NCBI GenBank assembly: GCA_965205505.1
Contig: CBDBHB010000009.1
Location: forward strand, 896,001 to 960,000
Length of the DNA: 64,000 nt
From: Acidobacteriota bacterium
GTDB taxonomy: Bacteria > Acidobacteriota > UBA890 > WLXD01
Reading direction: 5' to 3'
Part shown: piece by piece, positions 17,557 to 28,061 of the stretch
How the letters are laid out: every line of letters starts with the position of its first letter
Numbering within the stretch: the stretch's first letter is position 1
The notes under the pieces: model-generated
Told to the model about the DNA's origin: nothing
The model's database searches: none
Seen by the model: the letters and a program-made list of their open reading frames with translations, nothing else
Translations under genes and position numbers: made by a program

Positions 17557-19321
17557 ATGGTCGGTCGGACCATTGCGCACTACGAGATTACGGCTAGGAT
17601 CGCCCAAGGCGGTATGGGCGTCGTATACAGAGCCGTCGATCACAAGCTCGACCGCGCCGTAGCGATCAAGGTGATGCGCGAGGACGTGACCTCCGCGCTC
17701 AACTCCGCCAGATTCCTCCGCGAGTCGCGGATCGTCGCCCGCCTCCAGCATCCCAACATCCTGCCGGTCTACGATTCCGGTGAGGAAGAAGGGCTCCTGT
17801 TCTACGTGATGCCGCTCGTCGAGGGGGAGACTCTCGCGCAACGGTTGGCCCACGAGCGGCGCCTGCCGATCGATAAGGCCCTGCAGATCACGCGTGACAT
17901 TGTCGAGGCGCTTGCTTATGCGCACGCGCGGGAAATCGTGCATCGCGATGTCAAACTGTCCAATGTGCTCCTCTCTAGTGGGCGTGCCATGCTCGCTGAT
18001 TCCGGCGTAGCTGTCGCGCTGGGATCACGGCAGGACGACAAGCTAACCGGTACGGGCTTTGTGCTGGGAACTTCTTCGTATATGAGCCCCGAGCAGGCAA
18101 GCGGAAGCCTCGAGATCGGCGGGCGCAGCGATCTCTACAGCGTTGGTTGCGTACTTTTTGAGATGCTGACCGGAGCACCTCCGTTCACAGGAGAGACTCC
18201 TGCGGCGATTCTCAAGGGTCACCTGTTGGACGCGCCGACTATGCTGCGGACCGTCCGACCGCAAGTACCCGTTGCCGTCGAAGTAGCGGTCGATCGGGTC
18301 CTTTCGAAGAAAGCCGCAGATCGGTTTCCCAACGCCCGACGGTTCTTGGATGCCCTTGCAGGCGAAAGTGAAGGGATGCCCGAGGTGCAAACGGATGCGG
18401 TGACGATAGGTGCCGGCGACCCCGTCGCCGTTGCTCGCCCGACAGCGGCGTCTCTCACATTTCGGCAGGCCATGGCGGGGGGCCTGACCCTCGGGCTGGT
18501 CGTTGCTGTCGCGCTTTGGATGTTCCTTCCACTGGGACAGCCGGCCGTGAGCGAAACACCGTTGCCGATTGTCGCCGTTCTTCCATTCGAGAATCTCACC
18601 GGAGACGCGTCGCTCGATCACGTGGGAATCGGAACTGCCCATGCGCTGGTGTCGGCGCTCTCGACACTGTCCGGCGTTACCGCGATTTCTCGCGCCGCGA
18701 CCCTTCAGTACGGCGCCGACAGCACGAACGTAACCGAGTTGGCGCGAGGCCTTGGCGCAACCTTCGTCGTTCAGGGGGTGGTGCAGGCGGTGGCGGCGCG
18801 GATACAGGTCACGGCGAGTGTGGTTCGCTCGGACGAATCGGTCATCTGGGGACAATCCTACGAAGGCGGTCTTGAGGATTTGTTCGATATGCAGCGCAGG
18901 CTTTTTAGAGGCGTTAGCCAGGCTCTCCAGGTGAGTCTCCGGCCGGAGGACCTTGAACGGTTCAATCAGCCGCCTACGCGCAACAGAAATGCCTACGCCG
19001 AGTACTCGCAGGGTCGGGCCTTTCTGGAGCGCACGGACGTTGCCGGTAAACTCCAGCGAGGAGCTCGCCTTTTCGAGAGTGCGATCAGGCGCGACCCGAG
19101 CTTTGCGTTGGCTCACGCGGGTCTTGCGGAGTCTTTTTGGGAAACGTATCGAGATACCTTGGATCAACAGTGGGTCGAACGTGCCATGGATTCGGCGGAA
19201 GAGGCTCGACGCCTCGAGCCAACGCGCCCGGAAGTCCGCCAGACACTCGCCGTGATCTACGAAGGGATGGGACGTTACGAAGAGGCGCTGCTGGAATTGG
19301 ACGGTGCGCTCGAGCTGCAGC
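17557..19321 (+). pseudogene. Ser/Thr protein kinase with TM, TolB-like and TPR region, truncated by IS21
   Basis: QGGMGVVYRA, VAIK, HRDVK, D(S)G in place of DFG, YMSPEQ, VAVLPFENL; the IS starts at 19322 inside the TPRs. Confidence 0.85.
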
Positions 19322-19463
19322 TGGTAGCGGCAGACTGAAAAGGGACCCCGTGGCGGGTTGAAAAGGGACCCCCTGAGAAGCGCTGGACTGGCCCCCCCTG
19401 GTGGGGTAGCGAGACGGAAGCAATAGAGCGTTTCGGATACCCGATCCAGGAGGACCCGAGGAG

Positions 19464-20092
19464 GTGATCAGAGTGTCTCAGTGGGCCGAGATTCGGCACA
19501 TGCACGTCGTGGATGGGATCGCCAAGAAGGAGATAGCCCGACGGCTGGAGGTAAACATCAAGACCGTGCGTCGGGCGCTGGACAAAGACGAGGCGCCGCT
19601 GCTGCGGGCAACGCCCCGGCGTGGGCGGCGGCTGGATCCGTGGCGGGAGCAGATCGAGGGCTGGTTGAAAGCCGATACGCCCGTTCGTTCCGACAGGGAG
19701 CCAAGGTGCTGGAGCCGCTACACGTGCTGCCGTTGCTGGAGCGCAAGCACCGGGCGGTGGGCGAGGCGACGGCGCTGCAGGGCTGGGAGCTGCCCGAGGC
19801 GTTCGGCGAGCTCAGAAGACAGCTCCACCAGTGCACCCGCAAACCGGACCGGGAATGGGTGAAGGTGCTGCGGCTGTTGGAGGAGCACGAGCAGCCCGAG
19901 GTGGAAGCCGCGGTCCAGGAGGCGCTACGGAGCGGATCGCCCCGCTACGAGACCGTGCGCTTGTTGCTACGTCGAGCACAGCGGGCGGGGATGCCCCAGG
20001 TACGCCCGGTGCCGGTACGCGCTGAGCTGGCGGCGATGAGGGTCCCAGAGCCGGTGCTGGAGGCGTACGACGTGCTCTGGAGGACAAGCTGA
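19464..20092 (+). pseudogene. istA: IstA transposase with the central catalytic region deleted
   Basis: N-terminal HTH (KKEIARRLEVNIKTVRRAL...LDPWREQIEGWL) joined at ~19680 to the C-terminus (PLHVLPLLERK) in another frame; only ~630 bp. Confidence 0.8.
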
Positions 20093-20871
20093 TGGCGGTG
20101 GCCAAGATCCAGGAGCCACCGCATCTGCTGGAGGATCTGCGGACCCTGTACCTGACGAGCATGGCCTCACAGTGGCGAACGGTGGCGGAGCAGGCACGCA
20201 GCCACCGGCAACCCTATGCGGAGTTCTTGGCCGATCTGGCGAGGCTCGAGGTAACGGGTCGGCGAGAGCGACGCATCCAGCGGCGCGTGAAGGAGGCGCG
20301 CTTCCCGATGCTCAAGACGCTGGATGCCTTCCAGTTCGAGGCGCAGCCGACGCTGGATCGGGACGAGGTGCTGGAGTTGTTCCGCTGCGAGTGGGTCCGA
20401 GAGGCGGCCAATGTGGTGTTCGTCGGCTCCGTCGGTACCGGCAAGACCCACCTGGCGATCGCGCTCGGGATGGCCTGCTGCCAGCAGGACTACCGGGTGA
20501 AGTTCACCACCGCTGCCGAGCTCACCAACATACTCGTGGAGGCCAAGCAGGACGGCCGGCTGTCCAGAAAGCTCGAGCAGATGGCGCGCTACGACGTGGT
20601 CATCCTCGATGAGCTCGGCTACGTGCCGTTCGACAAGCAAGGAGCCGATCTACTGTTCCGCTTCATCACCCGGGTGTACGAGCGCCGCTCCGTGGTGGTG
20701 ACCACGAACCTGCCGTTCGCCAAGTGGTCCGAGGTGTTCTTGGATGCCACGGCGGCCGCTGCGGTGATCGACCGGATCGTGCACCACGCTACCGTGCTCA
20801 AGACCGAAGGCAACAGCTACCGACTCAGGGCCGCTAAGGACAGAGGCCGACGTCGAAAGGGAGGACCATAA
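20092..20871 (+). CDS. istB: IS21 helper AAA+ ATPase
   Basis: GSVGTGKTHLA, LDELGY, TTNLPF.KW, DRIVHH. Confidence 0.95.
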   Translation: MAVAKIQEPPHLLEDLRTLYLTSMASQWRTVAEQARSHRQPYAEFLADLARLEVTGRRERRIQRRVKEARFPMLKTLDAFQFEAQPTLDRDEVLELFRCEWVREAANVVFVGSVGTGKTHLAIALGMACCQQDYRVKFTTAAELTNILVEAKQDGRLSRKLEQMARYDVVILDELGYVPFDKQGADLLFRFITRVYERRSVVVTTNLPFAKWSEVFLDATAAAAVIDRIVHHATVLKTEGNSYRLRAAKDRGRRRKGGP

Positions 20872-21327
20872 CGCTGCAGGACCCCGCGGCCGTGGAAACC
20901 GCCTCTACGACTACATAGGGGGTCCCTTTTTAACCCGCCGCAAAGGTCCCTTTACGACTTGCCATTACCAGTAGGACACCCAAAGGCGCAACGGTTTCGC
21001 TCCGGGCGCTCTTTTTTACCCATGAGACAGCACCGGCACGATGGTCTGGATCGGGGCGGGCAACCTGGAGTGCGGCCCGGGCCCACTGATCGATGGGGAC
21101 AGCAGCATCAGGCCCAGGATGACGGCCGGAATCAGCGTCAGTGCACGGCCCGAAAGGTTGATCCTGGGCGAGCGGAGATCGCCCATCCGCACGTTGCCGA
21201 GCTCACCTCTGTCCATATCATCTCTCCGTAGGCACGGGGGCGGTGGGGTAGACACGTCTTCAGGGTAGCGTGCGTGGCCGTGTGCCAACCCACTTCAGCT
21301 GGCAGGGAACCGACCCGGTACTGCTCC

Positions 21328-22572
21328 CTAGACAGGGCGCAGCATCGGCACCACCTTGCCGCCCTCAGCACTCAGGTAGGCGGCCCAGTCTTCCATCAGC
21401 TTCCGGCGCCGCTCCAGCAGGTCCGAGCGCGCATAGGCCGCCTCGGTGGGGTCGCGCACCGCATGCGCCAGCGCCGCCTCCATGACCGCCCGCGGTGCGT
21501 TGGTGCACTCCGCCGCCCAGTCCCGGAACGATGAGCGAAACCCGTGCGGTACCGCTTCAATGCCCAACTGCCGCAGCACCCGGGAAAGGGTCGCGTCCGC
21601 CAGCGGCCTGCCGGCCCGTGCACCGGGAAACACCAGCCCCTCGCCATCCCTGAGCCCCCGCGCCTGGCGCAGGATCTCCATTGCCCGGCCCGATAGCGGT
21701 ACCCGGTGCGCCCGGTTCGACTTCATGCGCTCGGGTGCAAGAGTCCACTCCCTCGCCTCCAGGTCCATCTCCTGCCAGGTAGCCAACCGCACCTCGCCGG
21801 AGCGGGCCGCCGTCAACACCAGAAACTCCAGGGCCAGCTTCACCACCCCGGAGGCATCCGAAGCCCGTACCGCCTCGATCGCACCGTCCACCTCGGCATG
21901 CGGCAACGCCCGCATATGCTGTCGCCGCTTGCGGTGCCGTGGCAGCGCCTGGGTGATCGCCTCACCAGCCGGGTTGTCGCCACGGTACCCCTGCGCCATG
22001 GCCCACTTCATCACCGCACCGATGCGCGCCCGCACCCGCCGTGCGGTCTCGGCCTTGTCATGCCAGATCGGACCCAGTACCTCCAACACCTCGGCCGTCG
22101 TCACCTCCGACACCGGCATCTCACCGATGCGCCCGTACGCATAGGTGCGCAACTCCGTTTTCCATTGCGCCGCATACTTGGCGTTGCGCCACCCGGGGCG
22201 GTGCATCTCATACACCTTGGCCGCTGCTTGCGCGAACGTCGGCATGCCCTCGGCCCGGCGCTTGTCTGTCAGCGGGTCACCGCCGGCACGGGCCAGCTTG
22301 CGGTTGGCAAATGCCACCTCGCGCGCCTCCGACAGCGACACCAAGGGGTAGCCTCCGAGACCCAGTTCCCGGCGACGGCCCTGGATCACGATCCGCTGTA
22401 CCCAGCTGCGCGCTCCGCTCGGGATCACGTTCAGGTACAGGCCGTGTCCATCGCAGTACCGGCCCGGCTTCATTACCGTGCGTACAAACGCCGGCGACAG
22501 GGCCCGCTCCGGGTGCTTGCCGCTCTTGCGCCGAGGGCTGGGTTTCGGTGTAGTTGCTTGCGCATCGGCCAT
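21328..22572 (-). CDS. P4-like tyrosine integrase with arm-binding domain
   Basis: PGRYCDGHGLYL, LGLGGYPLVSLSEAR, TAARSGE, MKSNRAHRVPL, HGFRSSFRDW, LAH...AYARSD. Confidence 0.93.
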   Translation of the reverse strand: MADAQATTPKPSPRRKSGKHPERALSPAFVRTVMKPGRYCDGHGLYLNVIPSGARSWVQRIVIQGRRRELGLGGYPLVSLSEAREVAFANRKLARAGGDPLTDKRRAEGMPTFAQAAAKVYEMHRPGWRNAKYAAQWKTELRTYAYGRIGEMPVSEVTTAEVLEVLGPIWHDKAETARRVRARIGAVMKWAMAQGYRGDNPAGEAITQALPRHRKRRQHMRALPHAEVDGAIEAVRASDASGVVKLALEFLVLTAARSGEVRLATWQEMDLEAREWTLAPERMKSNRAHRVPLSGRAMEILRQARGLRDGEGLVFPGARAGRPLADATLSRVLRQLGIEAVPHGFRSSFRDWAAECTNAPRAVMEAALAHAVRDPTEAAYARSDLLERRRKLMEDWAAYLSAEGGKVVPMLRPV

Positions 22573-22735
22573 ATTCTGCCTCCCCCTCTCATTCCACCAT
22601 TAGAGGCTGGAACGTAGCGGATTTCACGGGAACACGCAAGATGGACGAATACTCGTAACTGTCTGACTATACTGATGCTTATGGACTAATAGGTCAACTC
22701 AGGAATGCACCGGATCTGGACGATGGCAGAGATTT

Positions 22736-23099
22736 CGAGCGCCAGCGTCAGCAAGATAACAATCGAGAAACCGGGGGAGCGGACCAGAGAACGAGCAGCG
22801 AAGCGCAGGTCTTTGAGTAGTAACACGAACATCTGGGCACCGTCCGGGGAGTCGAAGTAGGTTCGATGATGGAGGCGGGCCGCGCTGCTACGCTGGTCCC
22901 GGGTCACACGCCACAGGTCGCGCAGGGTCGATATCCAGAAGCGTGGCAAGGCCAATGACCGGCCCGAATGTCGGGCGGCACGATGACCATCGCGGAAGAT
23001 CGAGAGCATCTCGGCTGCCGCCTCATGCCGGAGCTCAGCCGGGGTCAGTCGCAGCAGCGCCGCGTAGACGCGCTCTGCACCGGTGACGTGCTTTCTCAC
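22736..23099 (-). pseudogene. 5' fragment (~120 codons) of the ADOP-type permease
   Basis: Same N-terminus as the gene starting at 12420; diverges after LTLAL. Confidence 0.9.
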
Positions 23100-23272
23100 C
23101 GCGTCTCCGGTACCGGGACCACCAGATCAACGTTAGCCCGTCGGACCAGCTCGGCCAGGCGCCGAGCCTCCGCGGTGGCTACTTCGTTGCCGGCCGGGGT
23201 CAGCCGATAGTACTGGCGACGCGCGTCTTCTCCTTCGTCGACCGCGCTGGTGTGCTCGATCAAACCCCGCGC
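22736..23272. repeat. 537-bp direct repeat, copy 2
   Basis: Matches 12057-12593. Confidence 0.95.
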
Positions 23273-23458
23273 GCGTAGCTCCTTGAGCGTTCGGTAGAGA
23301 GTGCCAGGACGGAGGATCGCCTGCTGCCCGACGTGCTCGTTGGCCCGCAGCATGATTCCGTAGCCGTGCAGCGGCGCCTCGCGAAGTACCACTAGGATGC
23401 TGAACACCACGGGCCGAAGCGGCAGGTGGGCTTCGGGGTCGATGATCGTTCGCGACAT
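23096..23458 (-). CDS. PadR-family transcriptional regulator
   Basis: HGYGIM...PGTLYRTLKEL...RRQYYRLT. Confidence 0.9.
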   Translation of the reverse strand: MSRTIIDPEAHLPLRPVVFSILVVLREAPLHGYGIMLRANEHVGQQAILRPGTLYRTLKELRARGLIEHTSAVDEGEDARRQYYRLTPAGNEVATAEARRLAELVRRANVDLVVPVPETR

Positions 23459-23564
23459 GGCGTACTAGATGAGATGAGAAGGCCAACCTCCTGACGCAGT
23501 AGTCTGACGGCTCTGCAAACGTTTCTTCAAACGTAACGGGCTCGAAGCCCAAGGAGGTTGGCCG

Positions 23565-24612
23565 ATGAGGAGTGTAACGATTGGACTGGACGTAAGCGAC
23601 CGGTACAGCCGTATGTGCGTGCTCGACAGTAAGGGCAGGGTGATGGAGGAAGGGCGGGTGAGGACGAGCCCGGAGGGGCTGGCGAGGCGGTTCGGGTGCG
23701 AGGAGCCCGCTCGAGTTAGTGCTGGAGGTTGGAACGCACTCGCCGTGGATGAGTGAGCAGTTGAAGCAACTGGGTCATGAGGTGCTGGTGGCTAACCCGA
23801 GGCGGCTGAAGCTGATCTATGGCGAGCACGACAAGACCGACCGGTTGGATGCCGAGCACCTGGCACGAGTGGGCAGAATGGACCCAAAGCTGCTTAAGAC
23901 GGTGCAGCATCGAGGCAGACAAGCGCGAGCGGATCTAGCCGTGATTCGGAGCCGAGATGCTCTGGTAAAGAGCCGCACGCAGTTGGTGAGCCATGTGCGT
24001 GGTGCGGTCAAGTCGGCCGGTTGTCGTATTCCCAGGTGCTCGACGCCGGCGTTCGCGCGCACCGCGCCAGAGCACATACCGGAGCGGCTCAAGGGAGCGC
24101 TCGAGCCGGTGCTTGAAACGATCGCCATGCTGACGGGCAACATCCAGCAATACGAGCGTCAGATCGTGCAGCTGTGCCAGGGGCGATACCCGGAGACACA
24201 GCAGCTCCAGCAAGTGGCCGGGGGCGGAGCTCTGACCGCACTGGCGTATGTGCTGACGCTCGAGGAGCCGGAACGGTTCAATACCTCCAGAGCCGTGGGC
24301 CCGTACCTGGGACTGAGACCGAAGAAACGGCAGTCGGGGGACAAGGACCCTGCGCTACGAATAACCAAGGCGGGCGACAAAATGCTCCGACGCCTGTTGG
24401 TGGGCTCGGCGCATTACATCCTGGGCCCCTTCGGGCCCGATACTGAGCTCAGACGCTGGGGGCTCAAGCTGGCCGGACGCGGTGGTCCTCATGGCAACAA
24501 AAAGGCAGCAGTTGCTGTCGCCCGTAAGCTCGCCGTTGTGCTGCACCGACTGTGGCTGAGTGGAGACGAGTACGAACCGTTGCGCGCACCTGTAGAGGTT
24601 TCAGCAGCATGA
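23565..24612 (+). CDS. IS110-family DEDD recombinase/transposase with a +1 frameshift at 23716-23717
   Basis: IGLDVS, VLEVGT, KTDRLDA, LGLRP...QSG, AVARKL; AGGAGG RBS. Confidence 0.88.
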
Positions 24613-24659
24613 ACTAACCCGCAACCAGGAGGTCGGTAGGGCGACGCGACCCAACGGTT

Positions 24660-24815
24660 ATCGATCTGACCGCCCGGTCCGGGCGACTGCGAAGGTCACT
24701 ACGAGCTTCGAGCTCGGCAGCTAGATTGCAGCGCCTCGATCGGGACGGACCCCAGAATGCACCGGACGACCTAGAACCCTCGTCCACCAGAGTGCGAATA
24801 GGAGCATGGCGTGCA
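24660..24815 (+). ncRNA. candidate bridge/seek RNA of the IS1111-type element (boundaries approximate)
   Basis: Structured non-coding region 3' of the transposase; internal-loop strands AGGTCACT and CTAG match the two sides of the insertion site. Confidence 0.6.
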
Positions 24816-24871
24816 GATCGCTAATCGAAGGGCACCATGTTGCCCTTGACCGAGCTAGGCCTTCTCATAGA

Positions 24872-25128
24872 AGTGGCCTGTAACAGATCATCGTTGCATA
24901 TCGTGGTGGCGAAATGGGTCCGGATGCCAGGCGCGACGACGAGACGATGTTTGCCCATCTTGGAGGAGGAGCAACGCCGCAGACGGGCTGATTTCGCCGC
25001 CAGTTGCGGGCGATATCGGCGTTGCGCCTCGTCGACGATGCCCACTGCATCGCCTTCCTCGCCGCGCCTTGATCTCACCCGCAAATCCCATCTGCGATAT
25101 GCAACGATCATCTGTTACAGGCCACTAG
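24872..25128. mobile_element. MITE-like element, family A (~260 bp)
   Basis: 32-bp TIRs with one mismatch (AGTGGCCTGTAACAGAT(C/G)ATCGTTGCATATCG), CTAG at both ends once the IS is removed, internal imperfect palindrome. Confidence 0.8.
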
Positions 25129-25159
25129 TTATGCTCGAGGGGAAAAGCCTTTGCTTACG

Positions 25160-25188
25160 AATATATCCATTATCGAATGGATAAGCAA
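25160..25188 (-). promoter_or_regulatory. sigma70-like promoter TTGCTT-17-TATATT with an overlapping palindromic operator, pointing toward padR
   Basis: -35 at 25188-25183, -10 at 25165-25160; palindrome TATCCATT-N4-AATGGATA at 25164-25183. Confidence 0.6.
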
Positions 25189-25320
25189 AGCGCTCTTGAT
25201 CCCGGTGCGGAGGGCTCGGTCGCCGTGTGGGCGCGCCCGGAGCTGCTCGCGCGAGATCGACGGGTGACCGGTAGACTACTGGCGCTCGTGTCGTCCGTAC
25301 CCAGACTTCGAGGTAACCAT

Positions 25321-26091
25321 ATGCGCTGGCTCTGCTCCGTGTGGATGTTGTCCTTGTTGGCGATCCTGGTCGCTTGCGGCGGGGCCGAGCCTGCCGCCGA
25401 GGACGCAGTCCCTAGCGTCGAGCCACCGGCGTCGGCCGAGCCACCGTCGGTCGAGCCACCGGCGGCGCCGCCGTCTCCCGAGTCGGAGCCGGAGCCGACA
25501 CCAACCGTCTTGCCGCCCCTGCTGAACCCGGCGCACCCCGACGCTAACGCCACGGCCCCGACGGAGTATCGGGTCGTCCTCGACACCACCAAGGGCGACA
25601 TCGTGCTGCAGATCTATCGCGATTGGGCGCCGCGCGGGGCGGACCGTTTCTACAACCTCGTGCGCGCCGGATTCTTCACCGACGTGCGGTTCTTCCGGGT
25701 CGTCGACGGGTTTGTAGCGCAGTTCGGAATGAACGGCGATCCTGAGGTGAACGCCGCCTGGGACGCGGCCGAGATGCCGGACGATCCGAGCATCGGCGAG
25801 ACCAATTCGCGCGGCCGCATAACTTTCGCGCACGCCGGGCCGAACACCCGCACCACACAGCTCTTCCTCAGCATCGGCAACAACGCGTTTCTCGACCGAC
25901 AGGGCTTCCCGCCGTTTGGCGAGATCGTCGAGGGCCTCGGTGTGCTGGACAGCCTCCATCAGGGGTACGGCGATTTCCCCCCGTCAGGTAGTGGACCCGA
26001 CCCGGGGCGGATTGGTGTGCAGGGCAACCGGTACCTGGAACGCGAGTTCCCGATGCTCGACTATGTGCGTCGCGCGCGCCTGCTCGAGTAG
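25321..26091 (+). CDS. cyclophilin-type peptidyl-prolyl isomerase, lipoprotein
   Basis: LVAC lipobox, Pro/Glu linker, DWAPRGADRFYNLV, FFRVVDGFVAQFG, NTRTTQLF. Confidence 0.9.
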   Translation: MRWLCSVWMLSLLAILVACGGAEPAAEDAVPSVEPPASAEPPSVEPPAAPPSPESEPEPTPTVLPPLLNPAHPDANATAPTEYRVVLDTTKGDIVLQIYRDWAPRGADRFYNLVRAGFFTDVRFFRVVDGFVAQFGMNGDPEVNAAWDAAEMPDDPSIGETNSRGRITFAHAGPNTRTTQLFLSIGNNAFLDRQGFPPFGEIVEGLGVLDSLHQGYGDFPPSGSGPDPGRIGVQGNRYLEREFPMLDYVRRARLLE

Positions 26092-26172
26092 CGGGGCCTG
26101 TCGGGTGTGCGCCCACCGGTCGGCCAGTCGACAGCACACTAGTGGCCAGATCCCGGACGGCGGCCGATCAAA

Positions 26173-27942
26173 GTGACGTTCGAGATCGGCATCCTGCTGT
26201 TTCTTCTCGTCGGGGCCATGGTGGTCTTCTCGATGGAGTGGCTGCCGATCGATGTGGTTGCCATCAGCCTGGTCGTGGCGCTGGTGCTACTGGGTATCCT
26301 CACACCGGCCGAGGCGTTCGCCGGCTTTGCCAGCGACGTGATCTTGGTGCTGTGCGCGATCTTTATCCTGTCGGGCACCCTGGTGCGCACCGGGGTGATG
26401 GAGGCGGTCGGCCGCTGGCTACACCGCTTGGCGGGCAACAGCGAGCGCCGCGTGGTGGCGGCGGTGATGACGCTCTCGGCTGCCATGTCGAGCTTTCTCA
26501 GCAACACGAACTCGACGGCCGTGTTGACGCCGGCGGTCATCGAGTTCTCGCGCCATAGTCAGCTCAGCCCGAGCCGGTTTCTCATTCCGCTGGCCTACGC
26601 GTCGATGCTCGGTGGGGCGTCGACGCTCATCGGCACGTCTGCCAACCTTGCCGCCAGTGGCTTCATGGAGCGCGCCGGTCTCGAGCCACTGGGCCTGTTC
26701 GAGCTCCTGCCGGTGGGGGCGGCGATGAGTCTTGTCGGGATCGCCTACACCGTTCTATTTGGCTACCGCCTGTTGCCAAAGACGGCGAAGCCATCGTTGA
26801 GCGAGGAGTATGACCTCGGGCGCTACCTGTCCGAGGTGGTGCTCGATGCCGACTGCGAGCTCCTCGGCCGCGACTTGATAGCGCTCGATCTCGCGGATCG
26901 TGGGGTGTACGTGTTGGCGGTGCGACGAGCCGGGACGCGGATACTGCCACGTCGTGCCGGCGTCTTGCGTGTCGGCGATGTCATGGTGATCGAGGCAGAC
27001 CGCCAGGCTTTGCTCGATCTCGAGGCGATGCCGGGGCTGGACTTCCAGCGCCCGATGCCGCTGGTCGACGAAGATCTGGAAGGTGACGCAGTGGAGCTGG
27101 TGGAGGCGATCATCATGCCAGGATCGTTGTTTTTAGGGCGAACGTTGCGCGATATCGGTCTACGTAGTCGCTATGGCGCCTCGGTTCTGGCGATCCATCG
27201 TCGCGGCGTGCCGTACGCGATCGGACTGCGCGACTTACGTCTCGCGGTCGGCGACATCATGCTGGTGCGCGGTGGCGCGGAACAGCTGGGTCTGCTCGAG
27301 GCCACCGGCGACCTGCGGTTGATCGGCGAGGTGGCGCACGAGCCTGCTGCGCGACGCAAAGGGCTCATTGTGCTCGGGGCACTCCTGGCTGCGGTGCTGG
27401 CGGGGAGCACCGGGATCATGCCGCTCTCGATCAGCTTTCTACTTGCCGTGTTGGTAATCGTGTTGTCTCGGTGCGTGGCGGTCGACGAGATGTATGCGAT
27501 GATCGACTGGCGGGTCATCGTGCTCATCGGGGGCATGACCTCGTTCGGGGTGGCGCTTCAGAAGACCGGCACAGCCGACTGGTTGGCGAGGTTGCTCGCC
27601 GACGCGGTCCTACCCTTCGGCACCTACGCAGTGATGGCCGCCTTCATCGCCCTGACGATGGTGCTCACGCAGCCGCTGTCGAATGCCGCCGCGGCCCTCG
27701 TAGTGCTGCCGGTAGCGCTGTCGGTGGCGGCGCGCATCGGCGTCGACCCTCGCGCCTTGGCGATTCTCGTGACCCTCGCGGCGTCGCTATCGTTCATTGC
27801 CCCATTCGAGCCGGCGTGCCTGCTGGTGTACTCGCCGGGCAGGTATCGCTTTCGCGATTTCATCGTGGCTGGCGTACCGCTGAGCCTCCTCGCCGTGGGC
27901 GTGCTGTTGCTTCTCGTTCCGGTCTTCTGGCCGCTCGGCTGA
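26173..27942 (+). CDS. SLC13/CitMHS-type permease with TrkA-C domains
   Basis: SSFLSNT, LGGASTLIGTSANL, two soluble RCK-C-like repeats, LSNAAA. Confidence 0.88.
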   Translation: MTFEIGILLFLLVGAMVVFSMEWLPIDVVAISLVVALVLLGILTPAEAFAGFASDVILVLCAIFILSGTLVRTGVMEAVGRWLHRLAGNSERRVVAAVMTLSAAMSSFLSNTNSTAVLTPAVIEFSRHSQLSPSRFLIPLAYASMLGGASTLIGTSANLAASGFMERAGLEPLGLFELLPVGAAMSLVGIAYTVLFGYRLLPKTAKPSLSEEYDLGRYLSEVVLDADCELLGRDLIALDLADRGVYVLAVRRAGTRILPRRAGVLRVGDVMVIEADRQALLDLEAMPGLDFQRPMPLVDEDLEGDAVELVEAIIMPGSLFLGRTLRDIGLRSRYGASVLAIHRRGVPYAIGLRDLRLAVGDIMLVRGGAEQLGLLEATGDLRLIGEVAHEPAARRKGLIVLGALLAAVLAGSTGIMPLSISFLLAVLVIVLSRCVAVDEMYAMIDWRVIVLIGGMTSFGVALQKTGTADWLARLLADAVLPFGTYAVMAAFIALTMVLTQPLSNAAAALVVLPVALSVAARIGVDPRALAILVTLAASLSFIAPFEPACLLVYSPGRYRFRDFIVAGVPLSLLAVGVLLLLVPVFWPLG

Positions 27943-28061
27943 GCTGACCGCCGAGCGAAGTTCGCATTTGCCGAAGAAACCCTCGACTTTCGCCGCCGAT
28001 GCGGCATCGCATCAGAGGACGGGCGCATTCCCGACGAACGGCCCGACATCGGAGAGTCGAA

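Follow-up and report, generated by a model that had tools for sequence, protein, structure and literature searches.

We analyzed a stretch of 64,000 nucleotides from an Acidobacteriota genome (contig CBDBHB010000009.1, forward-strand positions 896,001 to 960,000), referred to here as the window, in which an insertion sequence (IS) lies at the end of a miniature inverted-repeat transposable element (MITE). The IS, at positions 23467 to 24871 of the window, belongs to the IS1111 family, and the noncoding region downstream of its transposase gene probably specifies a bridge (seek) RNA that would have two internal loops and aim the element at a word of the MITE end, CT-AG-TGGCCT. We put the probability of this reading at roughly 90%. 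The matches between the predicted RNA and its target are modest when the window is taken by itself, and the strength of the case comes from the occurrence of all 27 full-length genome copies at the same word and from covariation between loop strands and flanks in relatives. All positions below are those of the window, and all features of the IS are on the plus strand, which is the transposase strand.

The element is 1,405 bp long when one copy of the AG core (CT on the bottom strand) is counted at its left end. Its boundaries were fixed by an uninterrupted MITE end within the window, by the 27 full-length copies in the genome, and by an end architecture shared with relatives. In silico excision of 23467 to 24871 joined GTACT (23462 to 23466) to AGTGGCCTGTAACAG (24872 to 24886), which restored CTAG with no leftover bases and produced the mirror of the right MITE end, CTGTTACAGGCCACTAGT (25112 to 25129). 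The coordinates and the MITE-end restoration reported by an earlier sequence-only reading of this DNA were correct throughout. The left terminal extension, AGATGAG (23467 to 23473), is 7 nt long and begins with the two bases of the core; it is followed by an 11-bp left subterminal inverted repeat, ATGAGAAGGCC (23474 to 23484), which is a perfect inverted match to the right subterminal repeat, GGCCTTCTCAT (24858 to 24868). A 3-nt extension, AGA (24869 to 24871), completes the right end. Relatives carry AGATG[GA][GA] as the left extension, and 63 of 80 related loci have the word ATGAGAAGG at both ends within the shared arrangement AG-ATG[GA][GA]-ATGAGAAGG ... CCTTCTCAT-[AG]GA-AG, the sequence outside of which differs from element to element.

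These ends are those of an IS1111 element, in which subterminal repeats of approximately 11 to 13 bp are set in by 7 nt on the left and 3 nt on the right. As is also typical of the family, the noncoding region 3′ of the gene is the longer one (259 nt, 24613 to 24871, versus 98 nt upstream, 23467 to 23564), and a single target is used in one orientation and without true target duplication, such that the right end abuts AGTG(G/A)CCT in all 27 copies. The transposase gene (23565 to 24612) encodes a 348-amino-acid protein in intact copies but is frameshifted in the window by an extra T at 23716/23717, which leaves two open reading frame pieces (23565 to 23756 and 23719 to 24612) with DEDD_Tnp_IS110 and Transposase_20 domains. 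Pfam analysis of an intact copy recovered the DEDD/RuvC-like N-terminal domain and the C-terminal domain that are expected together (PF01548, 1.1e-17; PF02371, 5.6e-17), and the NCBIfam model NF033542, "IS110 family RNA-guided transposase," scored 206.9 bits against a cutoff of 140. The protein falls within the 330- to 350-amino-acid range of the family and contains GLRPKKRQSG, an instance of the family motif GL-P----S(T)G. Moreover, residues D9, E54, D92, D95, and G258 were invariant, and S257 nearly so, across 30 homologues. We conclude that the element is a member of the IS1111 family (within the IS110 family of ISfinder), as it had been classified from its sequence.

The MITE occupies 24874 to 25124, where it is 251 bp long, has terminal inverted repeats of approximately 35 bp, and is flanked by CTAG, the left copy being split by the IS and the right copy being intact at 25125 to 25128. 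The family is short (251 to 271 bp), noncoding, and present in many copies with terminal inverted repeats and a target-site duplication; most copies are approximately 270 bp long (25 of 54 inward-facing repeat pairs are 269 to 271 bp apart), and the flanks are CTAG, TTAG, or CTAA on both sides, indicating a 4-bp duplication. The left target half of the IS, CT (23465 to 23466), is the outer half of the CTAG duplication, and the right target half, AGTGGCCT (24872 to 24879), combines the other, inner half of that duplication with the six outermost MITE bases. A site is thus available at every MITE end, and insertion splits the duplication at its midpoint, two bases away from the MITE. The right end of the IS always faces the MITE.

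To ask whether other copies sit at the same word was a check proposed with the sequence-only reading, and 27 of 27 full-length copies in the genome (9 contigs, 5.98 Mb), which also contains IS fragments, were found there. The right flank was AGTGGCCT in 26 copies and AGTGACCT in 1; the left flank was CT in 25 copies and TT and TG in the other two and was variable beyond those positions. The conserved target on the transposase strand is thus CT-AG-TGGCCT(G). Whereas that side of the target stands as first described, the "right target" read on the bottom strand as AGTAC is conserved for its first two bases only. Contact with the MITE was likewise graded, in that 14 copies lay at a near-complete terminal repeat (at least 24 of 32 bases), 8 lay at a partial repeat, and 5 lay at the word only. 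The claim that MITE termini are the target accordingly holds for the main target, but the RNA would read a word of 10 to 12 nt, and 5 of the 27 copies lie at that word away from recognizable MITE ends. Unoccupied CTAGTGGCCT was found 109 times in the genome, compared to 13.5 occurrences expected from base composition; 63 of these sites were at MITE terminal repeats, and 46 were away from any near-complete repeat. The perfect complement of the guide, CTAGTGACCT, occurred twice.

A target-binding module is predicted at 24681 to 24736. Its outer stem pairs GGGCG.CUGC (24681 to 24690) with GCAGCGCCU (24728 to 24736), and the loop is closed by CTGCGA (24687 to 24692) with TTGCAG (24726 to 24731). 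Two putative guide strands are separated within the loop by an inner hairpin, CGAGCU-ucg-AGCUCG (24702 to 24716), the base of which covaries at the equivalent position in relatives. The 5′ strand, AGGUCACU (AGGTCACT as DNA; 24693 to 24700), is complementary to AGTG(G/A)CCT on the transposase strand, with one rU-dG wobble against the MITE-end word. The 3′ strand, GCAGCUAG (GCAGCTAG as DNA; 24717 to 24724), ends in six letters, AGCUAG, that equal the left flank plus the core. As in seek RNAs, the complement of the top strand (24693 to 24700) lies 5′ of the complement of the bottom strand (24719 to 24724), with overlap at the insertion point, and relatives have the same order. The minimum-free-energy fold of 24610 to 24875 included the proposed stem, loop, and hairpin (z = -3.15 relative to shuffles). 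The entire module was invariant in 27 of 27 genome copies, and its stem was kept with compensatory changes in 20 aligned relatives. Among dinucleotide shuffles of the noncoding region, an 8-mer complementary to AGTGGCCT with no more than one wobble arose in 621 of 20,000, and a 7-mer like ATAGAAG, the sequence of the right end of the element, arose in 1,380 of 20,000.

Relatives were collected with a profile of 30 homologues, which yielded 80 loci from many phyla with 49 to 60% protein identity. Fifty elements, including that of the window, had AG at both ends and enough flank for analysis. For each, AG and the next 7 nt of right flank were compared, as the reverse complement, to the noncoding region, which matched at 9 of 9 positions in 10 elements and at 8 or more of 9 positions in 31. 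The match always fell within a constant frame, GACUGCG-[strand]-hairpin-[left flank+AG]-AU.GCAGC, in which the window loop at 24693 to 24724 holds the homologous position and the 3′ strand of relatives repeats 4 to 6 nt of left flank and then AG. The strands of 38 nonredundant elements, apart from the constant core, were compared to their own flanks and, as a control, to those of other elements. The 5′ strand reached the threshold of at least 6 of 7 for its own target in 23 of 38 elements but in only 35 of 1,404 foreign pairings, and the 3′ strand reached its threshold of at least 4 of 5 in 23 of 38 elements but in only 25 of 1,406 foreign pairings. The nearest relative recovered with its flanks, in a genome of the same order (G011, about 65% protein identity), has the same extensions, carries the strands ACGGACUCU and GAGUAG, and lies at the site GAGT-AG-AGTCCG. 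The strands of metagenome loci L092, L085/86, and L089 likewise matched their own, different sites. We conclude that loop strands and insertion sites covary, which supports the earlier proposal that 24693 to 24724 is the target guide and answers the check on homologues suggested with it.

The relatives provided two further observations. Five loci from Acidobacteriota (L040, L050, L052, L058, and L067) have right flanks resembling CCGCG(A/C)CCGTNAGGGAG and a matching strand, GUCGCGGC or UGCGCGGC, which suggests that these elements are also aimed at a repeated element. Metagenome locus L088 apparently has TG rather than AG beside the right extension, with matching loop strands, and may represent a different core dinucleotide. 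A metagenome scan for closer relatives returned 7 loci, all with no more than 61% identity; relatives of 92 to 93% identity were seen among protein sequences.

A donor-binding module is predicted at 24750 to 24804, 3′ of the target module. It comprises CCCCA (24750 to 24754), a stem of UGCAC (24758 to 24762) with GUGCG (24792 to 24796), an inner hairpin (24764 to 24785), and a 3′ strand, AAUAGGAG (24797 to 24804). All 38 elements have the corresponding series ...CCCCA..UGCAC-hairpin-GUGCG-[AG]AU[GA]GAAG at this position. Nine elements have the right extension AGA, and their 3′ strand is AUAGAAG (AUAGGAG in the window); in 28 elements with GGA, it is AUGGAAG. The third base of the strand thus follows the right extension in 37 of 38 elements, and the exception, L061, probably has a misset end. 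Because of this tracking, we read ATAGGAG (24798 to 24804) as the 3′ donor strand, in agreement with the donor-end guide suggested from the window sequence. CCCCA is probably the 5′ donor strand; its position becomes CUCA, CCUAA, or AUCAUC with a changed left extension in five relatives (L059, L064, L078, L069, and L008), and we treat the assignment as tentative because tracking of the left extension is only partial. The second loop thus matches the element's own ends through its 3′ strand and in part through its 5′ strand.

The two modules were also supported by their conserved structure. The consensus of 20 aligned elements contains 21 pairs, for which 96% of cells were paired, compared to 24 to 45% when the partners were slid. 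Seven pairs showed compensatory change, and 0 of 500 shuffles reached the covariation score. Two alternative assignments within the donor module were considered. CTCGTCC (24779 to 24785) was rejected as the missing donor strand, as it forms the 3′ side of the module's inner hairpin, and a pairing proposed by RNAalifold between CCA (24752 to 24754) and UAG of the 3′ donor strand was not read as a stem, as it is broken without compensation in the two aligned AUAG elements.

The most likely explanation is that the 259-nt region 3′ of the transposase gene encodes a bridge RNA with two internal loops. The target loop (24681 to 24736) would contact both target strands, the transposase strand through pairing of AGGUCACU with AGTGGCCT and the other strand through pairing of (AG)CUAG with the complement of (AG)CTAG, thereby leading the recombinase to strand exchange at the AG/CT core of CT-AG-TGGCCT. 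In the donor loop (24750 to 24804), AAUAGGAG, and probably CCCCA as well, would pair with the element's own joined ends, ...CATAGA-AG-ATGAG.... By analogy with the published IS1111/IS110 mechanism, the RNA would be made and bound by the transposase, the strands would be cut at the corresponding positions, and movement would proceed via a circle with a junction promoter, in which ...CTCATAGA is joined to AGATGAG.... Junction promoters have been described for these IS families. Consistent with one here, a −35-like box, TTGACC (24846 to 24851), would face GAAGAT across the joined ends of a circle, and relatives carry TTGACA 16 to 17 nt before the end of the right repeat. A linear promoter scan of the element returned no matches; a junction promoter would arise only on the circle. 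No end-to-end circle joint was seen in public-run contigs carrying the IS, and such contigs drop rare forms.

Several observations weigh against RNA-guided targeting as proposed here. Within the window alone, the guide matches are events of only about 3% (target strand) and 7% (donor strand), and the wobble in the 5′ strand makes the guide imperfect for the sites that are used. The donor loop has imperfections of its own, namely, an rG-dT wobble in the 3′ strand and, where CCCCA meets the element's own left extension, a C-A mismatch, and the 5′ donor strand does not follow the left extension in the window element or in L027, L011, L037, and L016. In the comparison of relatives, a simple frame pattern matched 42 of the 50 elements and 8 were without the frame, 12 further rows in the frame test were identical duplicates, 15 of the 38 tested elements fell under the threshold on each strand, and ends were set by the repeat motif rather than by empty sites. 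Pairing does not account for the enrichment of T at position −3, which 9 of 27 occupied sites carry. An Rfam scan of 23300 to 25300 by E value returned two microRNA models (E of 3.2 and 7.5), both in the MITE and far under their gathering scores, and no match in the noncoding region of the IS. Finally, a single study provided two metatranscriptome runs with contigs that contain the consensus form of the IS but leave the unique flanks uncovered; carry-over of DNA is possible, and contigs can establish neither a transcript, with its ends and strand, nor the absence of one.

These points could be taken to mean that the protein alone picks the target and that the resemblance between loop and target is a coincidence. 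The shuffle frequencies would allow such a coincidence in a single window, and an RNA from the noncoding region is a prediction that Rfam does not match. We nonetheless consider protein-only choice very improbable, as transposases that are 49 to 60% identical lie at unrelated words while their homologous strands spell their own flanks at rates far above those of foreign pairings (23/38 versus 35/1404 and 23/38 versus 25/1406). Moreover, in the nearest relative the ends are the same, but strands and site both differ, and dependence on seekRNA has been shown experimentally in four IS1111-family members in the published account (PMC11187229). A different concern is that the right boundary was misplaced, such that AGTGGCCT is part of the element and the real target is little more than CT. 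Indeed, all 27 copies share at least 8 nt of right flank, whereas outside CT the left flank varies, and one-sided target logos often reflect wrongly set ends, according to a published caution. However, CTAGTGGCCT occurs uninterrupted 109 times, including at 63 intact MITE ends, one of them the other end of the MITE in the window, and the sequence past AGTGGCCT runs into the MITE repeat in 14 copies and partly does so in 8 more. The conserved end of relatives, ...CCTTCTCAT-[AG]GA-AG, is followed by a sequence that differs per element. A one-sided logo is in addition what a long 5′ guide and a short 3′ guide predict, and it recurs in relatives with two copies (L027/L028, L059/L060, and L075/L076). 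A misplaced boundary is therefore about as improbable as a protein-only choice, and an RNA with two guide loops remains our preferred explanation.

Harder to separate from RNA-guided targeting of MITE ends is the possibility that the 10- to 12-nt word is the real aim and that the MITE is its commonest carrier rather than a coadapted safe harbor. Its odds are only a little short of even, and it would refine, not exclude, the guidance proposed above. Five of the 27 copies have no recognizable MITE repeat and 8 are at partial ones, the 46 empty sites away from near-complete repeats carry the word all the same, the perfect complement of the guide is AGTGACCT rather than the MITE word, and relatives target many unrelated words. 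On the other hand, 22 of 27 copies abut a partial or near-complete repeat, the excess of the word in the genome is largely due to the MITE, and the MITE family is older than the IS in the genus.

The history of the two elements was traced in related genomes. A search of 26 related genomes recovered the MITE family from 18, among them 4 of 4 from the same genus. A search for close copies of the IS covered 41 genomes, the host and 40 related ones, and recovered none outside the host. In a sister genome, the orthologous spacer between padR and the cyclophilin gene, approximately 90% identical on both sides, contains neither MITE nor IS. As the MITE is genus wide and the IS was found only in the host genome among those searched, the IS is a late arrival on an old MITE family. 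An autonomous parent of the MITE was not found; two long repeat pairs (1,999 and 1,706 bp; L083 and L084) have open reading frames without a Pfam match.

Occupied and empty sites were also compared at the bases preceding the word. AG at −4/−3, which would extend pairing with the 3′ strand, was found just before CTAGTGGCCT in 4 occupied sites and in 0 of 109 empty sites, whereas CA at −4/−3 was found in 1 of 27 occupied sites and 41 of 109 empty sites (Fisher p = 3e-4). This sorting fits an RNA-guided choice that would reach to about −4. CA before CTAG looks like the MITE's own insertion preference; back-to-back palindromic MITE ends were rejected as the source of its frequency, as only 2 such arrangements exist. 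A bolder scenario is that the element depends on a target made by the integration of another element and reached it through a wobble, its perfect match being AGTGACCT, in which case it would be a recent, near-cognate arrival on a genus-wide MITE that burst to at least 27 copies in one genome. We regard this scenario as rather unlikely. If true, it would be a natural capture of an RNA-guided element by off-target tolerance, with the bases at −3 and −4 already sorting which MITE ends fill.

The copies in the genome differ in the state of the transposase gene. An intact 348-amino-acid reading frame was present in 10 of 27 full-length copies, and 17 of 27 were frameshifted, with recurrent lesions at three positions (4-bp deletion, 12 copies; 1-bp deletion, 5 copies; extra T, 3 copies). 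As the transposase of the window copy is frameshifted, that copy would be mobile only with transposase supplied by one of the 10 intact copies. Eight informative single-nucleotide polymorphisms (SNPs) formed a mosaic across the three frameshift classes. The shared frameshifts may reflect defective lineages mobilized in trans, but gene conversion among copies or mispolishing of repeats in the assembly would account for the pattern equally well, and per-copy variants of the IS may be unreliable, as SNP shuffling is expected from gene conversion and from mispolished repeats alike. The window copy has about a dozen private, clustered differences from the other 26 copies at 24738 to 24854, in the linker that separates the donor module from the right end; public-run contigs show another variant at 24821 to 24824, and the same stretch is unconserved among relatives. 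One further copy, at C8:891216-892371 of the host genome (G000), has an internal deletion that kept query positions 1 to 700 and 1063 to 1405. The 3′ half of the gene is gone, and both ends and the noncoding region are retained, making it a MITE-like derivative of the IS itself.

Upstream of the transposase gene, a 5′ leader hairpin (23481 to 23563) pairs GGCCAACCTCC (23481 to 23491) with GGAGGTTGGCC (23553 to 23563). This 11-bp perfect inverted repeat starts from the inner left subterminal repeat and covers the GGAGG that precedes the ATG at 23565, and many relatives have arms of at least 8 nt with changed letters. The conservation suggests that the hairpin masks the ribosome-binding site and may act in translation control. 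On the other side, a minus-strand gene that starts with the ATG at 23458 encodes a PadR-family regulator (Pfam 3e-17; region 23096 to 23466). The MITE and IS are inserted 8 nt ahead of that start codon, and the native promoter region of the gene has thus been displaced by about 1.7 kb of mobile DNA. A 414-amino-acid tyrosine integrase with an arm-binding domain (Phage_int_M, Arm-DNA-bind_3, and Phage_integrase) is encoded at 21328 to 22572, 0.5 kb to the left of the padR operon, and no tRNA genes were found in a scan of 18000 to 28000.

Insertion into the ends of other mobile elements has precedent in the family. IS4321 and IS5075 are reportedly (2003) IS1111-family elements that target the terminal repeats of Tn21-family transposons in a fixed orientation, and their target is said to lie inside the 38-bp repeat of large resistance transposons. 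The element described here shares with them the use of another transposon's terminal repeat, but its site consists of the outermost bases of a MITE plus half of the duplication. In Coxiella burnetii, 20 of 21 IS1111 copies are described as lying in the MITE QMITE2 (Wachter et al. 2018; PMC5896051), and as in that account, the copies found here are mostly in a MITE that is older and serves as a multicopy landing site. The QMITE2 site is described there as a palindrome inside the MITE, whereas the site here straddles the MITE duplication and the first six bases and leaves the terminal repeat intact. We found no report of a site straddling a MITE duplication and terminus in the literature on IS110/IS1111 elements with MITEs.

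The predicted RNA likewise has close counterparts. Siddiquee et al. (2024; PMC11187229) report that IS1111-family elements make a seekRNA from the downstream noncoding region, with dependence on it shown for ISEc11, ISPa11, ISKpn4, and ISPst6 and with relatives naturally re-aimed. As those four elements are described there, they share with the window element a DEDD transposase of 330 to 350 amino acids with GL-P----SG, 7-nt and 3-nt extensions, a long downstream noncoding region, and a top-strand guide 5′ of the bottom-strand guide with overlap at the insertion point, and in both cases relatives are re-aimed by a change of the guide strands only. The likeness to the published folds is one of strand order and anatomy rather than a base-by-base fold, and unlike the elements of that account, the window element has another host lineage and another target word and is known from sequence alone. 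Durrant et al. (2024; PMC11208160) report bridge RNAs predicted at the right end in 93% of IS1111-group elements. As described for IS621 in that account, two internal loops, target and donor, are predicted around a CT core, which reads AG on the transposase strand of the window element, and the C-terminal domain of its transposase matched the IS621 and ISCro4 chains (E of 4.5e-8 and 4.6e-9, respectively), the similarity to IS621 extending only over residues 188 to 340. In contrast, IS621 is described as having its RNA upstream of the gene and subterminal repeats of 2 to 3 bp, where the window element has its RNA region downstream and 11-bp repeats. The novelty implied by the sequence-only reading thus does not hold, in that 3′ bridge or seek RNAs of IS1111 elements, IS1111 insertion in a MITE, and targeting of transposon repeats are all published. 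The straddling site is a detail and not a new kind of target.

If the guide loops act as proposed, an IS1111-type element from outside the Proteobacteria here provides a clean natural example of a target chosen by RNA guidance. The 27 occupied and 109 empty words, together with about 40 relatives, could help to define the pairing rules of this clade, including how long each guide strand is, how far rU-dG and rG-dT wobbles are tolerated, and what positions −3 and −4 contribute. The known mechanism of these elements is unchanged by the finding, and the end of a MITE together with its duplication can act as a landing pad.

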